From Burkholderiales bacterium (GTDB taxonomy: Bacteria; Pseudomonadota; Gammaproteobacteria; Burkholderiales; SG8-41), in NCBI GenBank assembly GCA_022843705.1, contig JALHND010000004.1, forward strand, positions 1 through 57,329: DNA of 57,329 nt, read 5' to 3'. Within the stretch, counting starts at the first letter, position 1. Each line of letters starts with the position of its first letter. The notes below the pieces were generated by a model that did not search any database, was not told the origin of the DNA, and saw only the letters and a list, made by a program, of their open reading frames with translations. Below are positions 3,092 through 54,303 of this stretch, in pieces. A program made the position numbers and the translations under genes.

Positions 3092-3135
3092 AGTATTATT
3101 ATAAGTGTTTGTTTTTATTGATATTTTTATTATGC
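3092..3135 (-). repeat. AT-rich module copy (between the hemL stop and the pseudouridine synthase start)
   Basis: The reverse complement reads GCATAATAAAAATATCAATAAAAACAAACACTTATAATAATACT. TATAAT lies 35 nt upstream of the ATG at 3062. Confidence 0.65.
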
Positions 3136-3141
3136 TGCGGA

Positions 3142-4419
3142 TCAAAGTGCAGCAAAGACCTTGGCCGCAGCCTTGACCGTGCGCTCGATTTCCGCGGTGC
3201 CATGGGCAGCAGAGACGAAGCCGGCCTCGTACGCTGAGGGTGCGAAGTAGATGCCCTCGGCCAGCATCGCATGGAAAAAGCGGTTGAAGGCGTCCTTGTC
3301 ACATTGCATCACCTCGGCGTACGAGGTCGGCGGTGTTTCGCGGAAATAGAGGCCGAACATGCCGCCGACGTTGCGCGCCGAAAACGGGATGCGCCGGGCC
3401 TGGGCCGCTTCGGCAAGACCGCTGCACAGCTGGTGCGTGGCGGCAGCGAGCCGGTCGTGGAAGCCCGGTGCCTGGATCAGTTGCAGCGTGGCGAGCCCGG
3501 CGGCGACGGCTACCGGGTTGCCGGACAGGGTGCCGGCCTGGTACACCGGCCCCACCGGCGCCAGGCATTGCATGATGTCGCGGCGTCCGCCGAAGGCCCC
3601 CACCGGCAGGCCGCCGCCGATGACCTTGCCCAGCGTGGTCAGGTCAGGTTTGATGTCATACAGTGCCTGCGCGCCGCCGAGCGCAACACGAAAGCCGGTC
3701 ATCACCTCGTCAAAAATCAGCACGGCGCCATGCTGCGTGCACAACCGGCGCAGCAACTCGAGGAATCCGGGGCGCGGCGCAACCAGGTTCATGTTGCCGG
3801 CGACGGGTTCGACGATCACTGCAGCAATTTCACCGCCTTCGCGCGCAAAGGCCGCTTCCAGACCGGCCGGGTCGTTGTAGTCCAGCACCAGCGTGTGTGC
3901 TGCGGTTTCGGCAGGTACTCCCGCCGATGAGGGTTGGCCAAAGGTCAGGGCGCCCGAGCCGGCCTTGACCAGCAGCGAGTCGGCATGGCCGTGGTAGCAG
4001 CCTTCGAACTTGATGATCCTACTGCGCCCGGTAAAGCCGCGGGCGAGCCGGATCGCGCTCATCGTGGCTTCGGTGCCGGAGCTGACCAGGCGGACCTGTT
4101 CCAGCGAGGGCACCAGCCGGCGCAGCAGATCGGCCATTTCGACCTCGGCTTCGGTGGGTGCACCGAAGGACAGGCCCCGTTCGGCCGCCTGCTGCACGGC
4201 CTTCACCACGTCAGGGTGGGCGTGGCCGCAGATCAGCGGCCCCCAGGAACCGACATAGTCGATGTAGCTGTTGCCATCGGCATCCCACACCAGCGCACCC
4301 TTGCCGCGCTGGAAAAACAGCGGCGTGCCGCCGACGGACTTGAAGGCGCGCACGGGAGAATTGACGCCGCCGGGGATGGTCAGCTGGGCATGGTTAAACA
4401 GCTTCTGGCTTTTTTTCAT
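3142..4419 (-). CDS. hemL: Glutamate-1-semialdehyde 2,1-aminomutase
   Basis: Full-length match to HemL signatures ([31 protein letters not shown], class-III aminotransferase PLP region FDEVMTGFR ... TLGKVIGGG). Confidence 0.95.
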
Positions 4420-5044
4420 GACGGGTTTCGAACAAGGTCTGGAAGTTGCGGGCGGCGACGGTGATGTTGTCCGCCGCGAACACCGCGGAAATCACGGCCA
4501 CCGCGTCCACTCCGGCAGCCAGCAATTGTGGCGCATTCTGCGGCGTGATGCCGCCGATGGCCACCACCGGCACCGCGAAGCGCTGTTTGGCGCGGCTGAC
4601 CAGGTCAAGCGGCGGACGCACGGCCCCGGGTTTGACGGTGGAGGGGAAAAAGCTGCCGAAGGCGATGTGGTCGGCGCCCGCGGCAATCGCCGCTGCGGCG
4701 AGTTCGATGCGGTCGTAGCAGGAGGCGCCGAGCAGCCGCTGCGGGCCCAGTCTCGCGCGGGCCGCGGCAATGTCGCCGTCGTCGCCGCCGAGATGCAGTC
4801 CGGCCGCGTTGCATTCGAGGGCGAGTTCGAGGTGGTCGTTGATGATCAGCGGCACGCCGGAGTCCCTGCACAAGGCCTGCAGGGCGCGGGCTTGCACGCT
4901 GCGCTGCGCCGGCGTTGCGATCTTGTTGCGGTACTGCAATACCCTGACGCCGCCGGCAAGGGCTGCGCGCACGCGGCGCAGCAGTTCCCCCGTGTCGGCG
5001 AGGTCGGGCGTGATTGCGTAGAGGCCTGCAATCCGCGCGTTCAC
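4394..5044 (-). CDS. thiE: Thiamine-phosphate synthase
   Basis: LYAITPD ... VLQYRNK ... [10 protein letters not shown] ... GASCY ... ADHIAFG ... VVAIGGI are typical ThiE motifs. The gene overlaps thiD by 4 nt and the hemL start by 26 nt. Confidence 0.9.
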
Positions 5045-8384: not shown

Positions 8385-9698
8385 TTATCTTTCTTCAAGG
8401 CGCTGCTCCACGTACGCGCTGTCGCGCAGCTGGCGCACCCATTCCTGATAGGCCTCGTCGGTTTTTCGTTCGCGCAGCGCCTGGCGCGCGTTCATGCGCT
8501 GCCCTTCGCGGGTCATGTCCTGGCTGCGGCGTTCCAGCACTTCGATCACGTGCCAGCCGAAAGGGCTGCGCACCGGGGCGCTGATTTCGCCGGGCTTCAG
8601 CGCATTCATTGCCTGCTCGAACTCGGGCACGGTGTCGCCGGCATTGAGCCAGCCGAGGTCGCCGCCGCGCGAGGCACTGCTGTCCTCGGAATTGGCGCGC
8701 GCCAGCTCGCCGAAATCGGCCTTGTTGTCGAGCCGTTCCTTCAGCGCCAGCAGGCGGTTGCGGGCCTCGGTTTCGGACACCAGCTCGTTGGTCTTGATCA
8801 GGATGTGGCGGGCTCGGGTCTGCTGGACCATGATCGGCGCCTGCCCGCCGCGGCGTTCGTTGAGGCGGAGGATGTGGAAGCCGTTGGGGCTGCGCAGCAG
8901 GTCGGTCAGCTGGCCGGCCTGCAGCGGGCGCAGGGCTTCGAGAAACAGCGTGGGCAGCCGTTCGCTCTCCCGCCAGCCGAGCAGGCCACCCTGCAGCGCC
9001 TCCGGCGCGTCGGAAAATGCCGCTGCGACCTGGCGGAAATCAGCGCCGCCCTTGAGCTGCGCCAGCGCCTGCTCCGCCCGGGCGCGTCGCGTCTGCAGCT
9101 GCTCCGGCGAGGCGTTTTCCGGCACCGACACCAGCACGTGCGACACGTTGAATTCGTCGCCGCGCCCCGGCTGCGCCTGCTGGCTCTGGATGAAATTGTC
9201 GATCTCGGATTCGGTGATGACGATTTTCTGCGCGACTTCGCGTTCACGCAGCCGCGCCAGCGTGATTTCGCCGCGGATGTCCTCGCGGAATTTGTCGAAA
9301 GGCACGCCATCCCGCTCCAGAGTGGCGCGCAATTGCGCCGGCGAGAGCTTGTTGTCCGCGGCGATGCGCTCCAGTGCCTTGTCGAGCTCGGCATCATCGA
9401 CGCGCAGGCCGATGTTCCGCGCATGCTGCATCTGCACCCGGTCACCGATCAGGCGTTCGAGCAGCTGGCGTTCGATGACTTCGCGCGGCGGCGGCGGGGT
9501 GCCCTGCTGGCGCAGCTGCCGGAACGCGAAATCGACGCGGGCGGCGAGCTCCTGCCGGGTGATGATTTCGTCGTTGACGACGGCCACGATGCCGTCGATG
9601 GTGACGATGGCGCGCGGTTTGGCGGTCTGCGCGTGGGCCGCCGGTGCGGCGGCCAGCAAGGCAGTGCAAAACAGGAACAGTGAAAATCGCAGTTGCAT
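8385..9698 (-). CDS. surA: Periplasmic chaperone / peptidyl-prolyl isomerase SurA
   Basis: Signal peptide MQLRFSLFLFCTALLAAAPAAHA. An N-terminal SurA domain is followed by two parvulin domains (ARHILIK ... GGDLGW ... GWHIIEV-type motifs). The gene sits in lptD-surA-pdxA-rsmA synteny. The start is set at the ATG that begins the signal peptide. Confidence 0.9.
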   Translation of the reverse strand: MQLRFSLFLFCTALLAAAPAAHAQTAKPRAIVTIDGIVAVVNDEIITRQELAARVDFAFRQLRQQGTPPPPREVIERQLLERLIGDRVQMQHARNIGLRVDDAELDKALERIAADNKLSPAQLRATLERDGVPFDKFREDIRGEITLARLREREVAQKIVITESEIDNFIQSQQAQPGRGDEFNVSHVLVSVPENASPEQLQTRRARAEQALAQLKGGADFRQVAAAFSDAPEALQGGLLGWRESERLPTLFLEALRPLQAGQLTDLLRSPNGFHILRLNERRGGQAPIMVQQTRARHILIKTNELVSETEARNRLLALKERLDNKADFGELARANSEDSSASRGGDLGWLNAGDTVPEFEQAMNALKPGEISAPVRSPFGWHVIEVLERRSQDMTREGQRMNARQALRERKTDEAYQEWVRQLRDSAYVEQRLEER

Positions 9699-9747
9699 GT
9701 TGAATCCAGGGGGGTCAGGTTGTTCGGCGTGTTCCCGCCGGGCCGGG

Positions 9748-12048
9748 CTAGAACACGCCCGGTACATTGTATTGGACTGGTGCCGCGGCGCGGGGATCCA
9801 CCGTTTTGTAGCCGCTGATGTTGCGGAACAGGACGTCCATCGGGTTGGTGCCGATGCGTGAAATCCCGCTCAGCTCAAGCTGGACAAAAATCGAGGTACT
9901 GGCGGCCGAGGTCGTGGTGGCGAAGCGGTGGCCGACGATGCGCAGGGCCCAGCAGCGGTCATTGTATTCGACGCCGGCCAGCGCCTCGAGGGTCCGGTTG
10001 TCGCGGATCGAGTAGTTCCAGCGGGCGACGGCGGTCCAGCGACCGTCGATGGGCCATTGCGCCGAGAAGTCGGTCTGACGCAGCGTATTGATGGTTTCGC
10101 GGTAGGCCAGGTTCAGCACCTTGCCGGCCTGCGGCTGGTAACGCCCTGCGATGTTGAATTTCTGGACCTGTTTGAGGTCGGTGTTGTACTGCCAGCCGGC
10201 TTCGGTAGTCCAGTTTTTGGCGATGTTGCCGCTGATCACCGCGAGCAGGTCGGAACTGTTGCTGTCGCTTGCGCGGGGCGCAACCCCCGGCAGCGTTACC
10301 TGCTGCGGCTCAAAGTAAAAACGCTGGGCCAGCGCCACGCGCAGGCGCTCGATGCCGGTGCTGGCATCGATGAAGCGTGAGCTGACACCGGCAGTCAGCT
10401 GGTTGGCGTCATTGATGCGGTCGCTGCCGCTGAACTGGTTTTCCGTGAACAGCGTCGCAAAATTGATGTCCTGCAGTCCGCTCTCGAAATTCGGCAGGCG
10501 GCTCTGGTCCTTGTACGGGATGTAGACGTAGTAGGCCTTGGGTTCCAGCGTCTGGATCAGCGTCTGGCCACGGGCCTGCATTTCGCGCTCGAACACGACC
10601 CCCGCTTCCGCGCTGAACACCGGCAGCGTGCGCGTGCGGTCCTGCAGGTTCAATGTGTTGTTCTCGCCCATCGCATAACGCGTGATGTGGGCGCCGATTT
10701 TCGGCGTCACGAAGGCAAACGCATTCTGCAGGGGCAGCGAAAGGCTGGGATTGAGCACCACCCGCTGGCCGTTGACCAGCGAGGGATGGTCAAAAGCGGT
10801 GTAGCTGCCGAGAAGATCGAAATCGCCGACACGGGTGCCCAGGCGCTGCGCGGACAGTGTCAGCTGCGGCTGCCGGTTGTAGGGGGCCACCAGCGGCGCC
10901 AGCGGATCCGACTGCAGCGTCTGCCAGCGCTGGGCAAAGGCCGAGAAGCTGTAGGTGCCGCCATTGCCCCAGGTGCCGCCGCGGGCGAGGGTCAGGTCAT
11001 TGGTCAGGTAGACCTGGGAGGTCACGGCAACCTGTGTCGACAGGTCGGTGAAATAATTGCCGTCGGACACGCGGTTGACATTTAAGGTGCCGCTCCAGCC
11101 GCGTCCCAGGGTCTGCTGGTGTTTTGCGAAAATGCCCCAGCGGTCGCGGCTGACCTGCTGGTCGCTGGTGAGGATCTCGGTGCGTGCCTCGCCTTTCCAG
11201 CTCGGGTTCAGGTAACGGAACTCGCCGCCGAGTTGCAGGCCGCGCTTGGTCATGTAGCGCGGGTACAGCGTCGCGTCCATATCCGGCGCGATGTTCCAGT
11301 AATAGGGAACGGTGAACTCGAAACCGGTGGTGTTGGAGGTCCGGTAACTCGGCGTCAGGAATCCGGACTTGCGTTCCTGGTGCAGCGAAAACGACAGGTA
11401 GGGCGAATAAAAGATGGTCTGGTCGAAAAACACGATGCTGGCATCACGGGCGACGCCGACATCGCGGCTGCGGTCGATGTCGAGCTGGCGGGCCCGGATG
11501 AACCAGGCGTCGTTGCCCGGCTCGCAGGTTGTGTAGCTTGCTGTCTGCACGCGATACTGCCCCGGACCCTCGAACAGCAGCCGTTCTGCGGTGCCGCGAC
11601 CGTCAGTGTCGCCGAAACGGGCAGTACTGCCAGTGGTGATGCCGGGTGGCGTGCTGACCAGCAGGTAGCGCGGCTGTTCCATGTAGCCGCGATCAGTGCC
11701 GATTTCGTAGCGCAGCGCATCACCCTCGATGATTTCGCGGCCCTGTTCGATCCGCACGTTGCCCTTGGCCGTGAGCACGTCGGTCGGCGTGTCGTGGCGC
11801 ATCCAGTCCGCAAAAAACGCTTGGCCGCGCTTGCGCAGCCGCGCGCTGCCATGGGCTTCGATTTCCTTGTCCTGCGTGCCCTGCAGGCGGTCCGCTTCGA
11901 TGAACAGCGGCACTTCATCGCTGTTGTCCGGCGGAATCAGCATCAGGCCGGGCTGCGACTTGAGTTTGAGGCCCTGCTCCGCGCCAGCCATCAACGGCAG
12001 TGCGCACAGCACGGCAAGCGCAATCCGGGTTTTTCTCGAGGAGGGCAT
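9748..12048 (-). CDS. lptD: LPS-assembly outer-membrane protein LptD
   Basis: MPSSRKTRIALAVLCALPLMAGA is a signal peptide, followed by an OstA N-terminal domain and a large beta-barrel that ends in aromatic-rich strands. The 1115-aa ORF extension upstream of 12048 overlaps amgK and is rejected. Confidence 0.9.
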   Translation of the reverse strand: MPSSRKTRIALAVLCALPLMAGAEQGLKLKSQPGLMLIPPDNSDEVPLFIEADRLQGTQDKEIEAHGSARLRKRGQAFFADWMRHDTPTDVLTAKGNVRIEQGREIIEGDALRYEIGTDRGYMEQPRYLLVSTPPGITTGSTARFGDTDGRGTAERLLFEGPGQYRVQTASYTTCEPGNDAWFIRARQLDIDRSRDVGVARDASIVFFDQTIFYSPYLSFSLHQERKSGFLTPSYRTSNTTGFEFTVPYYWNIAPDMDATLYPRYMTKRGLQLGGEFRYLNPSWKGEARTEILTSDQQVSRDRWGIFAKHQQTLGRGWSGTLNVNRVSDGNYFTDLSTQVAVTSQVYLTNDLTLARGGTWGNGGTYSFSAFAQRWQTLQSDPLAPLVAPYNRQPQLTLSAQRLGTRVGDFDLLGSYTAFDHPSLVNGQRVVLNPSLSLPLQNAFAFVTPKIGAHITRYAMGENNTLNLQDRTRTLPVFSAEAGVVFEREMQARGQTLIQTLEPKAYYVYIPYKDQSRLPNFESGLQDINFATLFTENQFSGSDRINDANQLTAGVSSRFIDASTGIERLRVALAQRFYFEPQQVTLPGVAPRASDSNSSDLLAVISGNIAKNWTTEAGWQYNTDLKQVQKFNIAGRYQPQAGKVLNLAYRETINTLRQTDFSAQWPIDGRWTAVARWNYSIRDNRTLEALAGVEYNDRCWALRIVGHRFATTTSAASTSIFVQLELSGISRIGTNPMDVLFRNISGYKTVDPRAAAPVQYNVPGVF

Positions 12049-12093
12049 CGGGGGGGGTGTCAGGCGAGGTGCTAAAATCTCACAATTCACTGA

Positions 12094-13125
12094 TTGAAGC
12101 AACGCTTGAACCCATCTCCAGTGGCCGGGCGCGACGAGCGCCTCGAATTGCTCCGCGCATGGCTTGCGGGACTGCTGTCCGGAGCCGATTTTTCCCTTGC
12201 GCCGGCGTCCGCCGATGCGAGTTTCCGCCGCTATTTCCGGGTGACCTTTGATGGCGGCACGCGCATCGTGATGGATGCGCCTCCGGAGCGTGAAGATTGC
12301 CGTCCCTTCGTCAAGGTCGCGCGATTGATGGACGCGGCCGGGCTGCATGTGCCGGAAGTGCAGGAGGCCGATATTGATCGCGGATTCCTGCTGCTGTCCG
12401 ACCTCGGCGACACCACCTACCTGAAGGCGCTGGATGAGCACAATGCCGATGCGCTGTTCGGCGATGCGATCACGGCGCTGGTGGCCTGGCAGCAGGCGAG
12501 CCGTCCGGGAGTGCTGCCGCCGTATGACCGCGACCTTCTTCAGCGGGAAATGGACCTGTTTCCCGACTGGTACGTCGGCAAACACCTGGGTGTCACGCTG
12601 TCCTCCGCGCAGCGCGCGACGCTGGCGCGGATCAACGGCCTGCTGGCCGACAGTGCTCTGGCGCAGCCGGCGGTATACGTGCATCGGGATTACATGCCGC
12701 GCAACCTGATGCTGTCTTCGCCCAATCCCGGCATTCTCGATTTCCAGGACGCGGTGTATGGTCCCCTGAGCTACGATGTTGCTTCGCTGTTCCGCGATGC
12801 CTTCATCAGCTGGCCGGAGGAGCGCACGCTGGACTGGGTGGTCCGGTACTGGGAGCAGGCGAAACGCGCGGGACTGCCGGTCGACGGGGATTTCGGGGCG
12901 TTTTACCGTGCCTTTGAGTGGATGGGCTTGCAGCGCCATCTCAAGGTGCTGGGCATCTTTGCCCGCATCCGTTACCGCGACGGCAAACCCGCCTACCTCG
13001 AAGATGCGCCGCGTTTCCTCGGATATGCGCGCGCAGTTTGCACCCGGTATGCCGCGCTGGCTCCGCTCGCACAACTGCTCGACGAACTCGAGCAACGTCC
13101 GCCGCAGGTCGGTTACACCTTCTGA
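12094..13125 (+). CDS. amgK: Aminoglycoside-phosphotransferase-fold kinase, AmgK-like (MurNAc/GlcNAc anomeric kinase)
   Basis: The APH-fold motifs SFRRYFR, VHRDYMPRNLM and LDFQDA are present. The gene is divergent from lptD and followed by a MurU-like nucleotidyltransferase, the arrangement known from Pseudomonas putida amgK-murU. The TTG start is uncertain. Confidence 0.75.
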   Translation: MKQRLNPSPVAGRDERLELLRAWLAGLLSGADFSLAPASADASFRRYFRVTFDGGTRIVMDAPPEREDCRPFVKVARLMDAAGLHVPEVQEADIDRGFLLLSDLGDTTYLKALDEHNADALFGDAITALVAWQQASRPGVLPPYDRDLLQREMDLFPDWYVGKHLGVTLSSAQRATLARINGLLADSALAQPAVYVHRDYMPRNLMLSSPNPGILDFQDAVYGPLSYDVASLFRDAFISWPEERTLDWVVRYWEQAKRAGLPVDGDFGAFYRAFEWMGLQRHLKVLGIFARIRYRDGKPAYLEDAPRFLGYARAVCTRYAALAPLAQLLDELEQRPPQVGYTF

Positions 13126-16725: not shown

Positions 16726-16990
16726 TTTTCCCGCGAACCGTTGCGCCCGGACGGTTTGCCGGAGAATCTGCAGGTGGCTTTCGAGCAATGTGCACTAACA
16801 GTTTGTTGAAATTCTCGAATTATTGTCATTCGCGGGCGCACAGGATTTCCCGACTCTCGTTAAATCAATGGCTTGTACGCGTGTGCGCTTGGTCGCTACG
16901 CTCTCCACGCACTCGCGCATCATTTTTTCAACAGACTGCTAAAGGTATTCATCGCAAAGAAGATTTTGTGCGGCGAACGGAATTTAATCC

Positions 16991-17110: not shown

Positions 17111-18118
17111 GTGCGTATTGGTTCCCATCAGCTGAAGAACAACCTCATCGTGGCACCGATGGCGGGCGTGACCGATCGTCCTTTCCGCCAGCTGTGCAAG
17201 ACAATGGGCGCCGGCATGGCGGTGTCGGAGATGGTGGCCAGCAATTCGCTGCTCTGGGGTTCCGAAAAAACCCGGCGTCGTGCCAACCACGACGGAGAAG
17301 TCGATCCGATTTCAGTGCAAATTGCCGGTGCCGATCCGCAGATGCTTGCCGATGCCGCACGCTACAACGTTGACCAGGGCGCGCAGATCATCGACATCAA
17401 CATGGGTTGCCCGGCGAAAAAAGTCTGCAACGTAATGGCGGGTTCGGCTCTGCTGAAGGACGAACCCTTGGTCGCGCGCATCCTTGATGCCGTGGTCGGC
17501 GCGGTTGACGTGCCGGTGACGCTGAAAATCCGCACCGGCTGGGACCGCGATCACCGCAATGCGCGCATGGTGGCGCGCATCGCCGAGAGCGCCGGCATCC
17601 AGGCGCTGGCGATCCACGGCCGCACCCGCGCCTGCGGCTACAGCGGCGAGGCCGAGTACGACACCATCGCCGCAGTCAAGGCCGAGATCCGCATCCCGGT
17701 GATCGCCAACGGCGACATCACCACGCCGGAGCGCGCGAAACACGTGCTCGAATACACCGGTGCCGACGCCGTGATGATCGGCCGCGCGGCCCAGGGGCGT
17801 CCGTGGATGTTCCGCGAAATCACCCACTTCCTGGAGACCGGCCGCCACCTGCCGCCGCCGGCAGTGGATGAAATCCACCGCGTGCTGGTCGCGCATCTGC
17901 ATGACCTCTACGGTTTTTACGGTGAACATACCGGCGTGCGTGTCGCGCGCAAGCACATCTCCTGGTACACCAAGGGACTGGCCGGGTCTGCGGCGTTCCG
18001 CCACGGCATGAACCAGTTGCAGACCTGTGCGGAACAGATCGATGCAGTGAACACCTTTTTTGCCGAACTTTCGGGTCTGGGCGAACGCCTGACCTATGTG
18101 GAGGAACTTGCAGCATGA
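17111..18118 (+). CDS. dusB: tRNA-dihydrouridine synthase B
   Basis: (V)RIGSHQLKNNLIVAPMAGVTDRPFR aligns with the E. coli DusB N-terminus. DINMGCPAKKV is present and fis lies downstream. The GTG start at 17111 is chosen by homology. Confidence 0.9.
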   Translation: MRIGSHQLKNNLIVAPMAGVTDRPFRQLCKTMGAGMAVSEMVASNSLLWGSEKTRRRANHDGEVDPISVQIAGADPQMLADAARYNVDQGAQIIDINMGCPAKKVCNVMAGSALLKDEPLVARILDAVVGAVDVPVTLKIRTGWDRDHRNARMVARIAESAGIQALAIHGRTRACGYSGEAEYDTIAAVKAEIRIPVIANGDITTPERAKHVLEYTGADAVMIGRAAQGRPWMFREITHFLETGRHLPPPAVDEIHRVLVAHLHDLYGFYGEHTGVRVARKHISWYTKGLAGSAAFRHGMNQLQTCAEQIDAVNTFFAELSGLGERLTYVEELAA

Positions 18119-18354
18119 TGAATGAAACCGAAATGGCCCGTGTCGTGCGCCGGGCGATCGACGGCTACTTCCGCGACCTCGACGGGGAAAAGGCCAGCGG
18201 CGTGTACGACATGGTCATCGGCAGCGTGGAAAAACCCCTGCTCGAATCGGTGCTGAACAAGGTGCGCGGCAACCAGTCCCACGCTGCGGCGATGCTGGGC
18301 ATCAACCGCAACACGCTGCGCAAGAAAATCAAGACCTACAACATCAAGTTCTGA
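18115..18354 (+). CDS. fis: DNA-binding protein Fis
   Basis: 79 aa with the C-terminal HTH GNQSHAAAMLGINRNTLRKKIK. The gene is overlap-coupled to dusB (ATGA). Confidence 0.92.
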   Translation: MMNETEMARVVRRAIDGYFRDLDGEKASGVYDMVIGSVEKPLLESVLNKVRGNQSHAAAMLGINRNTLRKKIKTYNIKF

Positions 18355-30822: not shown

Positions 30823-30868
30823 CGGAGCAGGCCCGGCAATGTCAATTTCAGCGCCGGTGACAGTCATG

Positions 30869-31446: not shown

Positions 31447-32718
31447 ATGAAAATCGACACCATTGCAGTACATGGCGGCTACCAGCCTGATCCGACCACC
31501 AAAGCGGTCGCTGTTCCGGTCTACCAGACAACCTCATATGCCTTCGACAGCACCCAGCATGCTGCCGACCTGTTCGACCTCAAGGTCCAGGGCAACATCT
31601 ATACCCGAATCATGAACCCGACCACCGACGTGCTCGAAAAGCGCGTCGCCGAAATGGAGGGCGGCATTGCCGGACTGGGCCTGGCCTCGGGCATGGCCGC
31701 GATCACCTACGCGATCATGACCATTGCCGAGGCCGGCGACAATATCGTCACCTCGAGCGCGCTCTACGGCGGCACCTACAACCTGTTTGCGCACACCTTT
31801 CCGCAGTACGGCATCGAGGTGCGCTTTGCCGATTACCGCGAACCCAGGGCCTGGCAGAAACTGATCGACGGCAAGACCAAGGCGGTGTTCTGCGAATCGG
31901 TGGGCAATCCGCTGGGCAATGTCGTCGACTTCGGCGAACTCGCGAAAATCGCCCACGAGCGCGGTGTGCCGGTAATCGTCGACAACACCGTGCCGACGCC
32001 CTATCTGTGCCGGCCTTTCGAGCATGGCGCCGACATCGTCGTGCATTCGCTGACCAAGTATCTCGGCGGCCACGGCAATTCCATCGGCGGCGCGATCGTC
32101 GACTCCGGCAACTTTCCCTGGGCCGGGCACAAGCAGAAGTTCCGCCGGCTCAACGAGCCCGACGTGTCCTACCACGGCGTGGTCTATACCGAGGCGCTGG
32201 GCGCCGCAGCCTACATCGGCCGCGCCCGCGTGGTTCCCCTGCGCAACATGGGCGCCGCGCTGTCGCCGTTCAATGCCTTCCTGATCCTGCAGGGCATCGA
32301 AACCCTGGCAGTGCGCATGGACCGCATCTGCGACAACGCGCAGGCCGTCGCCCGTCACCTGCAGGGCCATGCGAAAGTGGGCTGGGTGCGTTATGCCGGC
32401 CTGCCCGACCACCCGGACAAGCCGCTGGTCGACAAATACATGGGGGGGCGCGCCTCGGGCATTCTCAGCTTCGGCATCAAGTCCGGCAGCGCCGGCGGGG
32501 CGCGTTTCATCGACGCGCTGAAACTGGTGACGCGACTGGTCAACATCGGCGACGCGAAGTCGCTGGCCTGCCACCCTGCGAGCACCACCCACCGCCAGCT
32601 GTCGCCGCAGGAACTGGCGAGCGCCGGCGTCAGCGAGGACATGGTGCGCCTGTCGATCGGCATCGAGCACATCGACGACATCATCGCCGACCTCGAGCAG
32701 GCGCTCGCTGCCGCGTGA
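31447..32718 (+). CDS. metY: O-acetylhomoserine aminocarboxypropyltransferase (sulfhydrylase)
   Basis: [12 protein letters not shown] ... VYQTTSYAF ... [11 protein letters not shown] ... [11 protein letters not shown] (the PLP lysine). The 423-aa length is MetY-type. Confidence 0.92.
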
Positions 32719-39077: not shown

Positions 39078-39905
39078 TTATCGGGCGGACCGGCTCTCCA
39101 GCGCGTGACGCAGTTCCTGCAGCTCGATCCGCATGGCGCGGATTTCTTCGTGCAGTGCGGCTTCCGGCGTTGGCGCTGCGTTTTTGTCCTTGATCTCGAC
39201 CTCGTGTTCGGCCTGGATCGCGTTGACGATCACCGCGATGAACAGGTTGAGCATGGTGAAGGTCGAGATCAGGATGAACAGCACGAAGAATATCCAGGCC
39301 TGCGGAAACGCCTCGATCACCGGCCTCGCGATGCCCATCGACCAGCTCTCCAGCGTCATCACCTGGAACAGGGTGTAGGCGCTGCTGCCCAGGGTGCCGA
39401 ACCATTCCGGAAACTGGGCCCCGAAGAGTTTGGTGGCGATCACCGACGCGACATAAAAAATGATCGACAGGATGCCGAACACCGAGGCGAGCCCCGGAAT
39501 CGCCGCCAGCAGTCCGCCGACCACGCGCCGCATGTTGGGTACCATGGTCAGCAGGCGCAGCACCCTCAGCACCCGCAGGGCGCGCAGCACCGCGAAGGGG
39601 CCGGTGGCCGGCAGCAGCGCGATGGCGATGACGATGAAATCAAACACGCTCCACGGATCGCGGAAAAAGCGCCAGCCATGGGCGAAAAGGCGGATCACCA
39701 GTTCGATCACGAACACCGCGAGGATGGCCTGGTCGAGCCGCATCAGCAGTCCGCCCCAGTTGGCCATCACGGTCGGGCTGGTTTCGAGGCCGAGGATCAC
39801 GGCATTGACCAGGATCAGCGCGATGATCAGGCTTTGCGCATGGGGCGCTTCGATGCTCGCGGCCAGCTTGGCGCGCGTATTCGGGGATTCTGCTTGTGAG
39901 GTCAT
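39078..39905 (-). CDS. Bacterial voltage-gated sodium channel (BacNaV / NaChBac family)
   Basis: Six TM segments. S4 carries Arg at every third position (RALRVLRVLRLLTMVPNMRR). The selectivity filter is FQVMTLESWSMGI and there is a C-terminal coiled coil. The start is set at MTSQAES (ATG 39905). Confidence 0.85.
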   Translation of the reverse strand: MTSQAESPNTRAKLAASIEAPHAQSLIIALILVNAVILGLETSPTVMANWGGLLMRLDQAILAVFVIELVIRLFAHGWRFFRDPWSVFDFIVIAIALLPATGPFAVLRALRVLRVLRLLTMVPNMRRVVGGLLAAIPGLASVFGILSIIFYVASVIATKLFGAQFPEWFGTLGSSAYTLFQVMTLESWSMGIARPVIEAFPQAWIFFVLFILISTFTMLNLFIAVIVNAIQAEHEVEIKDKNAAPTPEAALHEEIRAMRIELQELRHALESRSAR

Positions 39906-40034
39906 GGTTTCCGTAAGGGGAAATAAAAAGCGGGATTGTGCGGTACTTCGACGGCCTGCGTGCCGGTTTCGCATGGTGTTGCAGACCGTAGCCGCAGCGA
40001 CTGCGATTCGGTAAGCTATCCGGACGCAGGCCCT

Positions 40035-40076
40035 CTATAAAAATATTCAATAAAATCAAATACTTAAAACATATCT
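40035..40076 (+). repeat. AT-rich module copy (divergent BacNaV / acyl-CoA dehydrogenase intergenic region)
   Basis: CTATAAAAATATTCAATAAAATCAAATACTTAAAACATATCT contains AATCAAATACTTA, an exact match to the E. coli IHF core WATCAANNNNTTR. Confidence 0.65.
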
Positions 40077-40097
40077 CCCTTCGGACAGGCAAGCACG

Positions 40098-41240
40098 ATG
40101 AATGAACACGGCATGGATCATGGGGCGTTGCTGGCGCAGAGCGTCGGCGATTTTGTGCAGCACGGCGCGGATCTGCCGCGGGTGCGCGCGCTGGCACAGG
40201 GCCGCGCCGAATTCGATGCCGCGCAGTGGCGCCAGCTGGCCGAACTGGGCTGGCTCGGCGTGCTGGTGCCGGAATCCTGCGGCGGATTGGGTCTGGGCCT
40301 CGCCGAGGCGGCGATTGTTGCCGAGGGTCTCGGCCGCGCACTGACGCCGGAACCTTATACTGCCGTTGCCGTGCTGGCGGCGCGGACGCTGGAAGGCGCT
40401 GCCGCATCACCGCTGCGCGAAGAATTGCTGGCCGGCCTGGCCGCCGGTTCGCGCCTGCCGGTGCTGGCCTGGCAGGAACAGCCTGATGATTTCGGCGGAC
40501 TGCAACTGGCAACAACAGCGATGCCCTTCGAGGGCGGCTTCCGCGTCAGCGGCGAAAAAAGTTTTGTGGTCGGCGCCGCTGCGGCCGACGGTTATGTCGT
40601 CAGCGCGCTGGCCGGCGGCGAACTGCAGCTGCTGTGGATTCCGCGCGATGCCGGCGGCTGCAGCACGGCCGCGCAGCCGCTCGCCGACGGCCGCAGTTAT
40701 GGCCGCCTTGCGCTGCGCGACGTCGTGGTGCCGCGCGAACATCTGCTGGCTTCGGGTGCCGCAGCGCGTGCTGCGCTCGACCGCGCGCTGGACCATGCAG
40801 CGACGGTGACGGCCGCCGAACTCTGCGGCGTGATGAAGCGGGCGCATGAAATGAGCCTTGATTACATGAAGACGCGGGTGCAGTTCGGCAAACCCATCGG
40901 CAGTTTCCAGGCCTTGCAGCACCGCGCAGTTGACCTGCACATCCAGCAGGAACTGGCCGACGCCGTGTTGCGTGAAGTGGTCGCCGAACTGGATGCCGGC
41001 CCCGATCCGGCGGCACGCGCGCGGGCCGCGAGCCGCGCCAAGTCGCGCTGTGCCGAGGCCGCGCTGGCGATCACCCGCGCCGCGATCCAGTTCCATGGCG
41101 CGATCGGCTTCACCGAGGACTGCGATGTCGGGCTGTATGCCAAACGCGCGATGACACTGTCGGCCTGGCTCGGCAACGGCCGCGCTCATCGCGCGCGTTA
41201 TGCGCGGCTTTCGGCGCCCGCCGCCCGGGAGGCCGCATGA
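40098..41240 (+). CDS. Acyl-CoA dehydrogenase-family protein (likely non-catalytic partner subunit)
   Basis: ACAD fold (WRQLAELGWLGVLVPE ... RVQFGKPIGSFQALQHR ... IQFHGAIGFTED), but the C-terminal YEG-type catalytic segment is absent. Overlap-coupled to the next ACAD gene (ATGA). Confidence 0.8.
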   Translation: MNEHGMDHGALLAQSVGDFVQHGADLPRVRALAQGRAEFDAAQWRQLAELGWLGVLVPESCGGLGLGLAEAAIVAEGLGRALTPEPYTAVAVLAARTLEGAAASPLREELLAGLAAGSRLPVLAWQEQPDDFGGLQLATTAMPFEGGFRVSGEKSFVVGAAAADGYVVSALAGGELQLLWIPRDAGGCSTAAQPLADGRSYGRLALRDVVVPREHLLASGAAARAALDRALDHAATVTAAELCGVMKRAHEMSLDYMKTRVQFGKPIGSFQALQHRAVDLHIQQELADAVLREVVAELDAGPDPAARARAASRAKSRCAEAALAITRAAIQFHGAIGFTEDCDVGLYAKRAMTLSAWLGNGRAHRARYARLSAPAAREAA

Positions 41241-42859: not shown

Positions 42860-44962
42860 GTGGCGGCTGAGGGACGCAGACCCGCGGCACCTCCGCGCCG
42901 TCCGGCCGCCGCCGCGAAGCCGGCGCTGCCCGGCATCGGCGGCGCCACCGCCGACAAGCTGGCGAAACTCGGCATCCGCCGCCGTTTCGACCTGGTGCTG
43001 CACCTGCCGCTGCGTTACGACGACGAAACGCGGCTCTGTCCCCTCGGTGAGGCATTGCCCGGCGCCGAGCTGCTGGTGCAGGGCGAGGTCATCGACTGCG
43101 ACATCAAGTACCGGCCCCGGCGCCAGCTGGTCTGCCGCATCAGCGACGGCAGTGGCGAACTGACGCTGCGTTTCCTCAATTTCTACGGCAGCCAGGTGAA
43201 GACGCTGGCGGTCGGCAACCATGTGCGTGTTTATGGCGTCCTGCGCATCGGCCATTTCGGGCCGGAGATGGTGCATCCGCGTTATCGCGTGATGGACCCC
43301 GGCGCGGCAGTGGCACAGGCGCTGACGCCGGTGTATCCGACCACCGCGGGCCTGGGCCAGGACAGCCTGCGGCGGATGATCGCGCGCGCGCTCGCCGACG
43401 AGCCGCTGGGCGAAACGTTGCCGCAGGCGCTGCTCGACGGACTCGGCCTGCCGGGTTTCGAATCCGCGGTGCGCCTGCTGCACAACCCGCCGCCCGATGT
43501 CGCGCAGGCTGCGCTGCAGGGGCGCGTGCATCCGGCCTGGCGGCGCATGAAATTCGACGAGCTGCTGGCGCAGCAGCTGTCGATGCGGGTGCATTACCGG
43601 CGGCGACGCGCGGCCGGTGCGCCGGTTCTTGCCGTGCGCGGGCAACTGGTCGATGCGCTGTTGAAGCGCCTGCCGTTCCGGCTGACCCGCGCGCAGAACA
43701 CGGTGCTGGCACAGATCCGCGACGACCTCGGCCAGGCGCATCCGATGCAGCGCCTGCTGCAGGGCGATGTCGGCAGCGGCAAGACCGTGGTTGCCGCGCT
43801 CGCGGCGCTGCAATGCGTCGAAAACGGTTATCAGGCGGCGGTGATGGCGCCCACCGAAATCCTTGCCGAGCAGCATTACCGCAAGTTTGCCGACTGGCTG
43901 GAGCCGCTCGGTATCCGTGTCGCCTGGCTGTCCGGTGGAATAAAAAATAGTGTTAAAAAACAAGAACTTATAAATGTATCCGGAGGGGAGGCGCAGGTTG
44001 TCGTCGGCACCCATGCCCTGTTCGAAGACGCCGTGGTGTTCAAGCGGCTGGGGCTGGCGATCATCGACGAGCAGCACCGGTTCGGCGTGCACCAGCGGCT
44101 TGCATTGCGCCAGAAGGGCACGCAGTCGACGAAAGGGCTGCAGCCGCACCAGTTGATGATGAGTGCGACGCCGATCCCGCGCACGCTGGCGATGAGTTAT
44201 TACGCCGATCTCGACGTGTCGGTGATCGACGAGTTGCCGCCCGGACGCACGCCGGTGGCGACGCGGCTGGTGTCCGAGGAGCGCCGCGACGAAGTGATCC
44301 AGCGCGTGCGCGACGCCTGCATCGCCGGGCGCCAGGCCTACTGGGTCTGCCCGCTGATCGAGGAGTCCGAAAAGCTGCAGCTGCAGACCGCGCTCGACAC
44401 CCATGCCCATCTGCAGCAGACCTTTCCCGAATTGCGTGTAGGCCTGGTGCACGGCCGCATGAAGGTCGCAGAAAAACAGGCGGTGATGGCCTCGTTCAAG
44501 GCGGGCGATGTGCAACTGCTGGTGGCGACCACGGTGATCGAGGTCGGCGTCGACGTGCCCAATGCCTCGCTGATGGTGATCGAGCACGCTGAACGCATGG
44601 GATTGTCGCAGTTGCACCAGTTGCGCGGCCGTGTCGGGCGTGGCGCCGCCGAGAGCACCTGCGTGCTGCTCTACCAGGCGCCGCTGTCGCCGCTGGCGAA
44701 GGAGCGGCTGAAGGTGATTTATGAACAGACCGACGGTTTCGAGATCGCGCGCCAGGACCTGAACCTTCGCGGTCCCGGCGAGCTGCTCGGCGCGAGGCAG
44801 AGCGGGGTGCCGATGCTGCGTTTCGCCGATCTTGCGGTCGACCTCGATCTGCTCGACGCGGCGCGTGATGCGGCGGAGCATTTGCTGCGCGAACAGCCGG
44901 ATTCGGCGAAAGCGCATCTCGCGCGCTGGCTCGGCGGGCGCAACGAATACCTGAAGGTGTGA
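42860..44962 (+). CDS. recG: ATP-dependent DNA helicase RecG
   Basis: The wedge domain (LHLPLRYDDET) is followed by helicase motifs (LLQGDVGSGKT, IIDEQHRFGV, MSATPIPRTL, VIEVGVDVPNA, QLHQLRGRVGRG). Colinear with E. coli RecG. The GTG start is uncertain. Confidence 0.92.
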   Translation: MAAEGRRPAAPPRRPAAAAKPALPGIGGATADKLAKLGIRRRFDLVLHLPLRYDDETRLCPLGEALPGAELLVQGEVIDCDIKYRPRRQLVCRISDGSGELTLRFLNFYGSQVKTLAVGNHVRVYGVLRIGHFGPEMVHPRYRVMDPGAAVAQALTPVYPTTAGLGQDSLRRMIARALADEPLGETLPQALLDGLGLPGFESAVRLLHNPPPDVAQAALQGRVHPAWRRMKFDELLAQQLSMRVHYRRRRAAGAPVLAVRGQLVDALLKRLPFRLTRAQNTVLAQIRDDLGQAHPMQRLLQGDVGSGKTVVAALAALQCVENGYQAAVMAPTEILAEQHYRKFADWLEPLGIRVAWLSGGIKNSVKKQELINVSGGEAQVVVGTHALFEDAVVFKRLGLAIIDEQHRFGVHQRLALRQKGTQSTKGLQPHQLMMSATPIPRTLAMSYYADLDVSVIDELPPGRTPVATRLVSEERRDEVIQRVRDACIAGRQAYWVCPLIEESEKLQLQTALDTHAHLQQTFPELRVGLVHGRMKVAEKQAVMASFKAGDVQLLVATTVIEVGVDVPNASLMVIEHAERMGLSQLHQLRGRVGRGAAESTCVLLYQAPLSPLAKERLKVIYEQTDGFEIARQDLNLRGPGELLGARQSGVPMLRFADLAVDLDLLDAARDAAEHLLREQPDSAKAHLARWLGGRNEYLKV
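43938..43980 (+). repeat. AT-rich module copy inside the recG coding sequence
   Basis: GAATAAAAAATAGTGTTAAAAAACAAGAACTTATAAATGTATC covers recG codons 360-374 (GIKNSVKKQELINVS), which use rare A/T-ending codons including two ATA. Confidence 0.6.
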
Positions 44963-47898: not shown

Positions 47899-47905
47899 GG
47901 CGCCC

Positions 47906-47945
47906 AATCAAATAATCATGAATATCTGCTTTTATTGATTTTCAA
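47906..47945 (-). repeat. Diverged AT-rich module copy (between ubiD and the membrane-protein gene)
   Basis: The reverse complement reads TTGAAAATCAATAAAAGCAGATATTCATGATTATTTGATT. Confidence 0.45.
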
Positions 47946-48004: not shown

Positions 48005-48793
48005 TTGAATACCGTCCTGTTGCTGAAGCTGGTGCTGGTGCCTGCGCTGATCGCGGGTGTGACCCTTGCCGGCCGGCGCTGGGGGCCGGCAGTGGCGGGC
48101 TGGCTGTCGGCCTTCCCGATCGTCGCGGGGCCGATCCTCTGGTTCATCGCTCTGGAGCAGGGCGTGGCTTTCGCCGCGCAGGCGGCGGTGGGGACGCTGT
48201 CGGCAGTGCTGGGCATGCTCGCCTTCGGCTTGAGTTACGCCTGGGCGGCGACACGGTTTTCCTGGCCGCTGAGCCTGCCGCTGGCCTATCTCGGTTATGC
48301 CTTCGCCGTCGTGCTGCTGGAATGGTGGAATGCCACCTTGCCTGCGGCCGCGGTGGGTGTGCTGCTCGGACTGTGGATCGCGCCGCGTTTTTATCCCCGC
48401 CTGAATGCAGCCGCTGCGTCTGCGGCGAAGCCGCCGCGCGACATGCTGCTGCGGATGATGCTCGGTGCCCTGCTGGTGCTGGGGGTGACTTATTCCGCCG
48501 CGCAGCTGGGGCCGTCGCTGAGCGGCATTCTCGCGATGTTTCCGGTGATGGGCACGGTGCTGGTGCTGTTCACCCATCGCAGCGCCGGTGCCGCGGCGAC
48601 CGTGCAGCTGCTGCGCGGCATGGTGCTCGGTTTTTATGCCTTCAGCACTTTTTGTGCAGTGCTGGCCTGGGCACTGGCGGATAACGGTATTGGCATGGCT
48701 TTCCTGTGGGCGCTGGCCGCCGCCGGTCTGGTGCAACTGCTGTCGCGGCTGTGGATGACCCGCCACGGCCTCGCGGTTGTGAGGCGTTCCTAG
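48005..48793 (+). CDS. Hypothetical polytopic inner-membrane protein
   Basis: 262 aa, about 8 hydrophobic segments, G/C-ending codons. The TTG start is uncertain. No family is recognised. Its TAG stop shares the palindrome CTAG with the dacB stop on the other strand. Confidence 0.6.
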   Translation: MNTVLLLKLVLVPALIAGVTLAGRRWGPAVAGWLSAFPIVAGPILWFIALEQGVAFAAQAAVGTLSAVLGMLAFGLSYAWAATRFSWPLSLPLAYLGYAFAVVLLEWWNATLPAAAVGVLLGLWIAPRFYPRLNAAAASAAKPPRDMLLRMMLGALLVLGVTYSAAQLGPSLSGILAMFPVMGTVLVLFTHRSAGAAATVQLLRGMVLGFYAFSTFCAVLAWALADNGIGMAFLWALAAAGLVQLLSRLWMTRHGLAVVRRS

Positions 48794-52114: not shown

Positions 52115-53433
52115 GCGGCGTTGACCAGTCCGAGGGTGCGCGCCGCGAGCAGCGCCATTTCGTCATCACTGATCGAATACGGCGGCATGAAGTAGACCGT
52201 GTTGCCGATCGGGCGCAGCAGCAGCTCCTGCCGGAGCGCGGCCTCGAACAGCCTGTGGCCGAAGCCGGGTCCTGCACCGCCGACTTCGAAAGCCCAGATC
52301 ATGCCGGTGTTGCGGAAGTCGCGGACCCGCGGATGGGCGGCCAGTTCGCGGGTCAGTGCCGTCATGCGCGCCGCCTTGCCGCGGTTGGCCTCGATGACCT
52401 GATCCTCATCGAAGATGTCCAGCGTTGCCAGCGCCGCCCGGCAGGCGAGTGCGTTGCCGGTGTAGGAATGGGAATGCAGGAAGCCGCGGGTGGTGTCATC
52501 GTCGTAGAACGCATCGTACACGGCATCGGTGGTGAGCACGGCCGACAGCGGCAGATAGCCGCCGGTGATGCCTTTCGACAGGCAGAGAAAATCCGGAACG
52601 ATGGCGGCCTGCTGATGCGCGAAAAAGGTCCCGGTGCGCCCGAAGCCGGTCATGATCTCGTCGGCGATCAGATGCACCCCGTAACGGTCGCAGAGCAGTC
52701 GCGCCTGGCGCAGGTACTCGGCATCGTACATTGCCATGCCGGTGGCGCCCTGCACCAGTGGCTCGACAATCAGCGCGGCGGTGTTTGCATGGTGCTGTTC
52801 GAGGTGACGCTCCAGTGCCTGCGCGCAGGCCATCGCATGCTCTCGCGGCGACTCGCCGGGCGCGGCCTGCCGCCAGTCGGGGCTCGGCACCTGCGCGCTG
52901 TGGCGCAGCAGCGGCGCATAGGTGTCCTTGAACAGCGCGACGTCGGTCACCGACAGCGCGCCGAGGGTTTCGCCGTGGTAGCTGCCGGCGAGGCTGATGA
53001 ATTCCGTCTTTCCCGGCCTGCCGCGGTTGCGCCAGTAATGGAAACTCATTTTCAGCGCGATCTCGGTGGCCGAGGCGCCGTCGCTGCCGTAGAAGCAGTG
53101 GCCCAGCGCATGGCCGGTCAGCGCTGACAGCCGCTCCGACAGCTGCACCACCGGCTCGTGGGTGAAGCCCGCGAGCATCACGTGTTCCAGCTGCTGCAGC
53201 TGGTCGATCAGCGCCGCATTGATGCGCGGCTCCGCATGACCGAAGAGATTGACCCACCAGGAACTGACGGCGTCGAGGTAGCGCCTGCCGTCACAGTCGT
53301 AGAGCCAGCAGCCCTGTGCGCGCGCGACCGGAATGATCGGCAGCGTCTCGTGCTGCTTCATCTGTGTGCAGGGATGCCACACCGCGGTGCGGCTGCGTGT
53401 TAGCAGCACAGTGTTGCGAGTGCTGGTTTGCAT
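52111..53433 (-). CDS. bioA: Adenosylmethionine-8-amino-7-oxononanoate aminotransferase
   Basis: VWHPCTQM ... DAVSSWWVNLFGH ... SDGASATEIALKM ... SYHGETLGALS ... ADEIMTGFGRTG ... CLSKGITGG aligns along the whole of E. coli BioA. Confidence 0.93.
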   Translation of the reverse strand: MQTSTRNTVLLTRSRTAVWHPCTQMKQHETLPIIPVARAQGCWLYDCDGRRYLDAVSSWWVNLFGHAEPRINAALIDQLQQLEHVMLAGFTHEPVVQLSERLSALTGHALGHCFYGSDGASATEIALKMSFHYWRNRGRPGKTEFISLAGSYHGETLGALSVTDVALFKDTYAPLLRHSAQVPSPDWRQAAPGESPREHAMACAQALERHLEQHHANTAALIVEPLVQGATGMAMYDAEYLRQARLLCDRYGVHLIADEIMTGFGRTGTFFAHQQAAIVPDFLCLSKGITGGYLPLSAVLTTDAVYDAFYDDDTTRGFLHSHSYTGNALACRAALATLDIFDEDQVIEANRGKAARMTALTRELAAHPRVRDFRNTGMIWAFEVGGAGPGFGHRLFEAALRQELLLRPIGNTVYFMPPYSISDDEMALLAARTLGLVNAA

Positions 53434-53615
53434 TTCGGGACGGCCCTATCGAATACTTTGCAGCGTTCAACCTGCGTGCATCCCGGCCGTTATGCAGTCT
53501 GTGGCCGTTGTGCCGAGCCGGTTGTGCCGGCGCCCCGCAGTGGCACCGAATTTGCTCTGAATGTTTTCGGCGGTTGTTGTTGAGTTTAACAGCACACTAC
53601 AGGAGATGTTTGCGC

Positions 53616-54269
53616 ATGCAGATTCTAGAACGCATCGAAAGCCAGATGTCCGCCACCGGCCTGCCCCTGGTCGGCATCACGCTTGCCGCAGTGCCCTGTC
53701 CCGACACGCCGGTGATCCTGACCCTGCACTGGCACGGCTTCATCAAGCAGAAGCTCGTTGATATCGAAGAGGCGGAGGCCGTGGCCTATACGCCGATTCC
53801 GAGCTCGACGCTGCAGCTGAACGAGCGCTGGCATGACCTGGTGGCGGTGGATCGTGCGGCGATGGACGCGGGCTGGGAACTCGGCGCCTGGGATGTGGCG
53901 CGCTCGGAACAGCCCGGTTGCCTGCGTCCGGGTGCGGCGCCCACCGAAGCGCTGGAATGTCTGCAGGCTTTCGGCGCCTACCCCCACAGTGTCAATGGCG
54001 CGCAGGTGGCGGTATCCGATGCGCCGGACACCGACGATCTGGTCGAACTGGCGGCCAACCGCGGCTATCTGCTGTGGTCTTTCCGGCCGGTCTGCGGCGG
54101 CATCTGGAAAGAACTGGCGGACGATGCGACGCTGACCCGCGAAGGCCGCCGGCCTTCGCCCTGTCCTCATCTGCCGGTACCGCCAGCCTGCAGTGGCAAA
54201 CGCAGGACGGTTTACCGTTTCGGCTTCCCGGTCCATCGGGCCTTGCCGGTACCACAGACCAGAATGTGA
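53616..54269 (+). CDS. Hypothetical protein (217 aa)
   Basis: ATG 53616 lies 10 nt after AGGAG. Codons are G/C-ending. No family is recognised, and no signal peptide or TM segment is evident. Confidence 0.6.
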   Translation: MQILERIESQMSATGLPLVGITLAAVPCPDTPVILTLHWHGFIKQKLVDIEEAEAVAYTPIPSSTLQLNERWHDLVAVDRAAMDAGWELGAWDVARSEQPGCLRPGAAPTEALECLQAFGAYPHSVNGAQVAVSDAPDTDDLVELAANRGYLLWSFRPVCGGIWKELADDATLTREGRRPSPCPHLPVPPACSGKRRTVYRFGFPVHRALPVPQTRM

Positions 54270-54303
54270 TATAACTGATTGTTTTTAAACATATTTTAGA
54301 CTA
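54262..54303 (-). repeat. AT-rich module copy upstream of the groES control region
   Basis: The reverse complement reads TAGTCTAAAATATGTTTAAAAACAATCAGTTATATCACATTC. Confidence 0.5.

Follow-up and report, generated by a model that had tools for sequence, protein, structure and literature searches.

A clade-specific family of conserved A/T islands as putative IHF-type binding sites in uncultured Burkholderiales

Integration host factor (IHF), a heterodimeric DNABII protein general to the Proteobacteria, recognises DNA through the minor groove and folds about 35 bp of it into a U-turn. Repeated IHF sites known as RIB and RIP, reportedly described by Boccard and Prentki in 1993 and by Oppenheim et al. 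in 1993, are said to be located in E. coli at the 3' ends of transcription units, as parts of BIME-1/REP clusters. The canonical IHF site consists of WATCAA, a TTR four bp 3' of it, and two base steps, usually AA, which are nine bp apart and at which prolines of the protein intercalate; in some cases a tract of 4-6 A is present in the 5' half (PMC1874591). The core consensus is given as WATCARnnnnTTR (10.1101/382655; PMC2709558), and conservation among E. coli sites covers less than half of the 34 bp (PMC1874591). Here we describe a family of short A/T islands in a 57.3-kb stretch of 65% GC DNA from a Burkholderiales bacterium (contig JALHND010000004.1, positions 1 to 57,329; the whole stretch is referred to as the window). 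The islands share the anatomy of IHF sites and are probably high-affinity IHF-type binding sites.

Seven patches in the window contain at least 16 A/T in 20 bases. They are listed below together with one weaker copy.

s1, 3092-3135, minus strand (patch 3085-3137): A-tract, ATCAAT and core AAACAA-ACAC-TTA (3102-3114).
s2, 31328-31373, minus strand (patch 31322-31375): in a divergent region; core AAACAA-ATAC-TTA (31340-31352).
s3, 40041-40070, plus strand (patch 40032-40077): core AATCAA-ATAC-TTA (40054-40066), the exact consensus, with all four IHF elements.
s4, 43941-43975, plus strand (patch 43936-43979): inside recG (42860-44962, plus strand), sense; A-tract followed by AAAAAACAA-GAAC-TTA (core 43958-43970).
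s5, 20128-20168, minus strand (patch 20138-20169): inside purD (19981-21258, plus strand), antisense; core AATCAA-TAAC-TTG (20137-20149), an exact match to WATCAA-N4-TTR, with a T-rich upstream tract.
s6, 54262-54303, minus strand (patch 54267-54305): antisense to groES; core AAACAA-TCAG-TTA (54272-54284).
s7, 47906-47945, minus strand (patch 47905-47942): the most degenerate copy (AAGCAG-ATAT-TCA).
Weak copy, 30779-30822, minus strand: core TAACAA-TGGG-TTA (30787-30799), which reads TAACAATGGGTTA.

A first-pass annotation of the window had quoted nine such sequences. All were found, position and strand included, and the seven it called clear are exactly the seven patches listed. Segments of 20 bases with at least 16 A/T numbered 153, compared with 2.5 in base shuffles. 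All seven patches align in a single register; their best 20-mer matches sum to 322 versus 262 ± 4.7 in composition-matched shuffles, and the best pair is identical at 19 of 20 positions, where the maximum in 300 shuffles was 17. The patches therefore share a core that exceeds mere A/T richness, as the annotation had maintained. The motif was also more frequent than in shuffled controls, as tested within the window: WAWCARNNNNTTR occurred 11 times (1.3 expected; maximum of 6 in 100 dinucleotide shuffles) and the strict form WATCARNNNNTTR five times (0.8 expected). Two of the listed copies match the IHF core WATCAA exactly, and four more carry the AACAA variant (W-A-A-C-A-A), both as claimed; the weak copy has the variant as well. 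Two weaker members had been proposed. The one at 30779-30822 was borne out by its match to the consensus and its retention in relatives, and the one at 1339-1357 has no match and is not a member. A position weight matrix built from the seven copies, the suggested scanning tool, proved overfitted; it rewarded G/C letters when given an A/T-rich background and was useless for the weak copies. IUPAC patterns and mismatch counts were used in its place. Identical patches in independent assemblies (L001-L003, in which s2 is identical, and L122) show that the islands are not artefacts of assembly.

An exact search for AATAAAAWCAAAYACTTAWA in metagenome contigs returned at least 120 loci. At least 41 of these are in contigs of 58-67% GC, where the 20-mer stands as an isolated A/T island (one is the window locus itself, L122); we estimate from base composition that about none would be expected there by chance. 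In 41 further copies, among the matches listed, the island extends from -13 to +25 (∼39 bp), and composition is back to background outside these limits. These copies have AAAA at -9 to -6 (83-93% A) followed by WW, giving AAAAWW at -9 to -4, then T at -2, C at -1, AA at 0-1, WAWCAA at 5-10 and TTA at 15-17; core position 3 is T in 21 and A in 20. The core they have in common is W-A-(A/T)-C-A-A, followed by four unconstrained positions and T-T-R, with an ApA step 9 bp upstream and an A-tract 9-14 bp upstream. Because the 20-mer search fixes its own letters, an unbiased profile was obtained from 50 other, unselected A/T patches in 288 kb from the window and 40 related contigs. A Gibbs sampler run without a prior pattern identified TAA-NNNN-TTG(A/T)TTTTAWT in 23 of the 50, which is the reverse complement of WA(A/T)CAA-NNNN-TTA; shuffled patches yielded at most five sites and a quarter of the score. 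The profile gives frequencies of 0.98 for the C, 0.99 and 0.86 for the two A, 0.86 and 0.94 for T-T, and 0.82 for A at the R position. The position of the core T is A/T 0.39/0.56, position 0 is A at 0.73, position 1 is A/T 0.60/0.39, and the four spacer positions carry 0.04-0.55 bits each.

This anatomy was compared with the published IHF site element by element. The core agrees with WATCAA or WATCAR only when the T is relaxed to W, TTR is located exactly four bp 3' of the core behind a free spacer, and two ApA steps are nine bp apart (positions 0-1 and 9-10). The 5' tract of 4-6 A is also present, being weak in s2 and a T-tract in s5. Equivalence of A and T at core position 3 fits minor-groove readout. 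Read in one orientation, an IHF-type site would thus run from the A-tract through about 9 bp to ApA, then 9 bp to a core containing the second ApA, four free bases and T-T-R. A literature search with the motif string gave no match.

The same regions were then compared in related uncultured Burkholderiales metagenome-assembled genomes (MAGs), as the first-pass annotation had advised. Relatives were reached through RecG and PurD homologues (L199, L204, L205, L207 and L208, with L206 as outgroup), and L191 came from the motif scan. Orthologous counterparts in one to three relatives each were found for s1, s3, s4, s5, s6 and the weak copy. L191 has s1 at the same place with flanks that are 78% identical in nucleotide sequence, L199 has AAACAA-ATAC-TTA in place of s3, L205 has AAACAA-TGAG-TTA upstream of groES in place of s6, and the core of the weak copy is kept in L207 and L208 with the spacer changed to CAAG. 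Flanks of the orthologous copies are ∼17-23% diverged. Over 10 orthologous comparisons, none of 50 invariant letters changed, and the 4 changes at 90 consensus positions were all W to W or R to R, versus 18 changes at 40 spacer positions (Fisher p = 7e-8). TTR is kept in the orthologs, and the bases 3' of it are not. A similar patch, likewise off-consensus, occupies the place of s7 in L204 (15322-15350); s7 is an uncertain member of the family. Taken together, these comparisons indicate that selection at the level of DNA maintains the islands, and that their places in the chromosome are fixed throughout the clade.

Two copies are located inside genes, as had been noted from the window, s4 in recG and s5 in purD. 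At the recG site 13 of 13 codons end in A/T, versus a GC fraction at third codon positions (GC3) of 0.83 for the gene in the window. Four clade members share an A-tract, 7-9 bases, AAAAAACAA, four free bases and TT(A/G), which encode K-K/N-x-x-K-K-Q-x-(L/V). The spacers of the relatives are TCAC (L199), ATGG (L204) and CAGG (L205), and the residues encoded vary across the clade (E-L, S-L, M-V and Q-V). The TT is kept in both CTT (Leu) and GTT (Val) codons and therefore reflects a constraint on DNA. The outgroup L206 has no site in recG and encodes LGRKEKRAAL there in GC-rich codons. The purD site is kept in L207 and L208, whose PurD proteins are 90-91% identical, and 11 of 11 codons in these relatives end in A/T (gene GC3 0.68). 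The purD pattern matches that of recG, codons and amino acids having shifted to hold the site. The two sites would be clear cases of a DNA-binding signal that constrains both codon choice and protein sequence.

Two side observations concern these genes and relatives. L207 (3709-3751) and L208 (3721-3768) share a further intragenic IHF-type site, AATCAATGATTTA, antisense within an NTP-transferase gene; the counterpart region of the window, 13-15 kb, has no patch with at least 16 of 20 A/T. The longest open reading frame (ORF) of recG in the window, starting with GTG at 42860, appears over-extended at its 5' end (42860-42950) relative to homologues (RecG, 693 aa).

Full sites, defined for density counts as the pattern plus an A4 tract, occur per 100 kb at 12 in the window, 4.8 in related metagenome contigs, 13.6 in L204, 31.7 in L205, 0 at the outgroup locus L206 and 0.3 in 603 kb of other GC-rich Proteobacteria. 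Copies with two or fewer mismatches to the 20-mer were absent from 1.4 Mb of sequence representing 80 other proteobacterial genomes; these control loci surround MetY homologues (best match 85% identical, none syntenic, none with the motif), and MetY is too conserved or mobile to find syntenic relatives.

Several of these results weigh against assigning the islands to IHF. With 5-32 versus 0.3 full sites per 100 kb, the clade is ∼15-100 times denser than other GC-rich Proteobacteria, and since IHF is present in Proteobacteria generally, this abundance is not explained by IHF alone. Letters outside the classical consensus are conserved too (T-AAAA before the core, 0.82-0.99), and about half of the copies have A where the classical WATCAA has T. 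Orthologous sites were located using the consensus pattern itself, yet every clade ortholog region examined matched. Finally, tblastn with E. coli IhfA, IhfB and HupA gave no match in the window or the clade loci, which together represent only ∼0.4 Mb of clade DNA, so that we infer IHF as the binder from the sequence of the islands.

The density difference, the lack of sites at the nearest outgroup locus, the lack of 20-mer copies in the 80 other genomes and the extra conserved TAAAA before the core are what one would expect if a different, possibly clade-specific DNA-binding protein with an IHF-like preference, such as a second DNABII paralogue, an H-NS-like protein or a global regulator, recognised the islands. 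ATCAATAAAT-like stretches in them also resemble the H-NS nucleation motif, TCGATAAATT. For a protein other than IHF, the co-occurrence of all four published IHF elements at canonical spacing with a degenerate spacer would be a striking coincidence, and isolated 39-bp patches are unlike the extended A/T-rich tracts of H-NS-type silencing. We regard this explanation as unlikely and favor IHF-type sites.

Abundance in this clade alone, together with the occurrence in either orientation, the toleration within genes through codon adaptation, and the finding of at least 41 copies in GC-rich metagenome contigs where our estimate predicts about none, could suggest that a self-propagating or drive-generated signal (a DNA uptake sequence, for instance, or a miniature mobile repeat) has spread in the clade. 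No conserved flanks, terminal inverted repeats or duplications were found beyond the 39-bp island; the A-rich strand is strongly asymmetric, without repeated termini, and copies occupy the same positions in genomes ∼20% diverged. Orthologous copies differ at 1-2 of 20 letters and copies at different loci at 1-4 of 20, a similarity that fits selection toward one consensus and not recent copying. Known DNA uptake sequences occur about once per kb, versus 0.05-0.3 per kb here, and the degenerate internal spacer is unlike theirs. Among viral contigs, 63 of 72 matches came from contigs below 50% GC and a single one from a contig with a GC content of 58% or more, so the element is not carried by phages. 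Spread of this kind is a highly improbable source of the islands.

Not every match to the 20-mer belongs to the family. In eight contigs of 51-58% GC (L099, L130, L138, L147, L154, L167, L169 and L187) it is embedded in another, longer block, ..ggagtttcggatggatc..ATAAAAATCCACAATAAAATCAAATACTTAAAAGTACCTACCTATGA.., which is unrelated to the A/T islands and had no Rfam match in the four of the eight contigs searched. In L139, a contig of 34% GC, the 20-mer occurs three times with a 109-bp period inside a tandem repeat (3420-3657), and these copies are most likely unrelated as well.

We next consider gene context. Site s1 fills the gap between an aminotransferase gene (3142-4419, minus strand) and an RluB-like pseudouridine synthase gene (2331-3062, minus strand). 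Site s2 is located between a cytochrome c gene (30913-31221, minus strand) and metY (31447-32718, plus strand), and s3 between an ion-channel gene (39078-39905, minus strand) and an acyl-CoA dehydrogenase gene (40098-41240, plus strand). Site s7 lies just past the ubiD stop codon (47898), ahead of a hypothetical gene (48005-48793, plus strand). In the 41 metagenome copies the island is often the entire intergenic gap, with stop codons in its flanks. Mixed orientation, also claimed from the window, was upheld: among the 22 copies with fully resolved context, 12 are sense and 4 antisense between co-directional genes, 4 lie between convergent and 2 between divergent genes, and both orientations occur in the window, L205, L207 and L208.

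The first-pass annotation had offered two identities for the dispersed cis element, an IHF-like site, a shared promoter/UP module, or both. The first is supported by anatomy, spacer and conservation, all of them sequence evidence; the second is not supported for the family as a whole. If the islands were sigma-70 promoters whose A-tracts resembled UP elements, the -10 hexamer would be the TATAAT-like end and transcription would start ∼7 nt downstream. As reported, s1 and s2 do end in perfect TATAAT hexamers (3103-3098, 35 nt before the ATG at 3062; 31337-31332, 110 nt before the ATG at 31221), s2 scores as promoter-like with TTAATA-16-TATAAT, and the A-rich strand is mostly sense among co-directional pairs (12 versus 4). 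The features that define such promoters are lacking in the family as a whole. A -10 hexamer would have a conserved A at -11 and a conserved T at -7; the base corresponding to -7 is T in just 12 of the 41 copies (29%) and is not preserved in orthologs, which retain TTR and not the bases after it, and +20 to +25 is merely A/T-rich. There is no conserved -35 hexamer 16-18 bp upstream, where the consensus reads AATAAA/ATCAAT; only s2 passes a scan, at 4 of 6 (TTAATA), and s1 reaches at best 3 of 6 as read from the sequence. Orientation is not fixed toward a gene start, since islands are also found antisense between co-directional genes (4), between convergent genes (4) and inside genes. The promoter/UP module thus fails as a family property because orientation is free, convergent copies exist, there is no -35 and the -7 T is unconserved. 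The groES gene and the liv-like operon, moreover, each have a promoter of their own. Single copies may overlap a promoter, s2 for example; as an account of the family, sigma-70 promoters are very unlikely. For annotation, isolated A/T islands in GC-rich genomes should not be taken as promoters by default.

The promoters near two of the copies could be read from the window. In the groES region (54354-54409) a sigma-32-type promoter, CTTGCTT, 13 nt and CCCCTATTAT (54374-54383), shares one base with a perfect CIRCE operator, TTAGCACTC-N9-GAGTGCTAA (54383-54409); groES of the outgroup L206, unlike that of the window, has TTGACA...TATTAT plus CIRCE. Site s6 lies upstream of the groES transcription signals by about 100 bp, with promoter and operator 50-100 bp from the island and the promoter itself 70-100 bp away. 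The liv-like ABC operon has a strong, near-consensus sigma-70-like promoter, TTGACA-17-GATAAT (30845-30817, minus strand), directly after a hairpin and T-run terminator (∼30868-30895, minus strand; read from sequence) that ends the cytochrome c gene. The upstream A/T tract of the weak copy (GATAAT) doubles as the -10 hexamer of this promoter.

Action at the RNA level was also considered, with the islands as A/U-rich unstructured segments for Hfq (ARN)n binding, RNase E or S1 entry, or relief of mRNA structure ahead of start codons. By our reading the sense RNA AAUAAAAACAAAUAC contains four ARN triplets, and a start codon follows the end of many copies by 1-35 nt. Either strand may be the transcribed one, and the joint conservation of CAA, a free N4 and TT, with A/T equivalence, fits recognition of the duplex minor groove and not an RNA motif. 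An RNA-level role is accordingly given very little weight here, and IHF-type sites remain the favored reading. A Fur box, an FNR/CRP box, sigma-E or sigma-54 promoters, a Fis site, a Bacteroidetes-type promoter and dif/Ter sites were considered for the islands and rejected on sequence alone.

The window is a housekeeping stretch of a betaproteobacterium, with GC at the third codon position of ∼0.8. Genes were assigned from precomputed gene calls and Pfam wherever possible; an earlier GC3-based calling was confounded by antisense shadow frames and was refined with GC1 > GC2. In order they are thiE, thiD, gloA, ksgA, pdxA, surA, lptD, pepP, ubiH, dusB, fis, purH, purD, hemF, a Ser/Thr-kinase and histidine-kinase pair, a liv-type ABC transporter, cytochrome c, metY, ilvD, lgt, tRNA-Ala, two acyl-CoA dehydrogenases, ridA, recG, ubiC, ubiA, ubiD, PBP4, an RNase J-like beta-CASP protein, an aminotransferase, groES, groEL and tRNA-Phe. 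An Rfam search of the window found the two tRNAs and nothing else. The lptD ORF (9748-13095, 1115 aa) appears over-extended at its 5' end relative to homologues (LptD, 764 aa), its Pfam domains starting only at residue 560. In L205 the ridA homologue upstream of recG (9473-9954) was called as two ORFs (106 and 58 aa), which may be due to a frameshift or an assembly error. The nearest named proteins belong to MAGs designated Burkholderiales or Betaproteobacteria bacterium, the DNA of the window is also present in activated-carbon, drinking-water and freshwater metagenomes, and metatranscriptome runs contained only 20-30% of groEL words, as contigs from relatives. The clade is one of uncultured freshwater and drinking-water Burkholderiales.

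In E. coli, IHF acts upstream of the fis promoter. The window has two more matches to the IHF pattern (16796-16808 and 16863-16875), one of them exact (AATCAATGGCTTG), in a gap of 322 bp that precedes the dusB-fis operon (fis 18115-18354, Pfam HTH_8). Neither lies in an A/T island, and L207 and L208 lack a counterpart of either.

The role we propose for the islands is architectural. Bending by an IHF-type protein would help some promoters and otherwise organise the nucleoid, and would not serve promoter recognition. Most copies would act from short intergenic gaps that they fill, a few, such as those at groES and the cytochrome c gene, from positions 75-100 bp ahead of a promoter, and at least two from within coding sequence (recG and purD). 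The kind of element is already known; its multiplication across a clade and its conserved sites in coding sequence are the interesting parts. Extrapolation from 5-32 sites per 100 kb raises the tentative possibility that the clade has multiplied near-optimal four-element IHF sites to several hundred fixed "bend points" throughout the genome, which fill minimal gaps, mark gene ends and are written into housekeeping coding sequence at a cost in amino acids. Such a set, if real, would mean that IHF, or a paralogue, has a role particular to this lineage, in the organisation of the chromosome or the insulation of transcription units; to our knowledge, no such role of IHF has been described for other Proteobacteria. 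If IHF is the binder, the lineage would offer an unusually clean natural catalogue of strong IHF sites, visible by eye in GC-rich DNA, with orthologous series that reveal the letters protected by selection. The abundance in the clade raises the question of what use a chromosome has for many fixed, sharp DNA bends.

Four described systems resemble the islands in part. Like the uptake sequences of Pasteurellaceae and Neisseriaceae, they are a clade-specific, over-represented motif that is orientation-independent and tolerated in genes; unlike those sequences, which have an invariant core, they are ∼10 times sparser (5-32 per 100 kb), have a degenerate spacer and match a known protein-binding consensus. 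They share A/T-richness and A-tracts with sigma-70 promoters carrying UP elements, and in two copies the terminal TATAAT stands at a plausible distance from a start codon, whereas -35 hexamers, a conserved -7 T and fixed orientation are absent and islands also occur where no gene starts. With RIB and RIP they share the reiteration of a near-identical IHF-type site between genes, often directly past a stop codon and including convergent pairs. They differ from these in having no flanking REP-type palindromes or conserved flank, and in that some are located, and kept, inside coding sequence; column composition revealed no flanking inverted REP palindromes, non-conserved hairpins not having been searched systematically.

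The closest resemblance is to the canonical IHF site. Both have the WATCAR core, four free bases and TTR; in the islands A replaces the T of WATCAA in about half of the copies, and T-AAAA 5' of the core is conserved. The islands are far more uniform than the known E. coli IHF sites. The H' site of lambda attP, AAAAAA-GCATTGCT-TATCAA-TTTG-TTG, is similar in extent (∼35 bp for the H' class, ∼39 bp for the island) and in its two ApA (or TpT) steps 9 bp apart, and its A6 tract, 8 bp before TATCAA, occupies the same six positions as the AAAAWW of the island.

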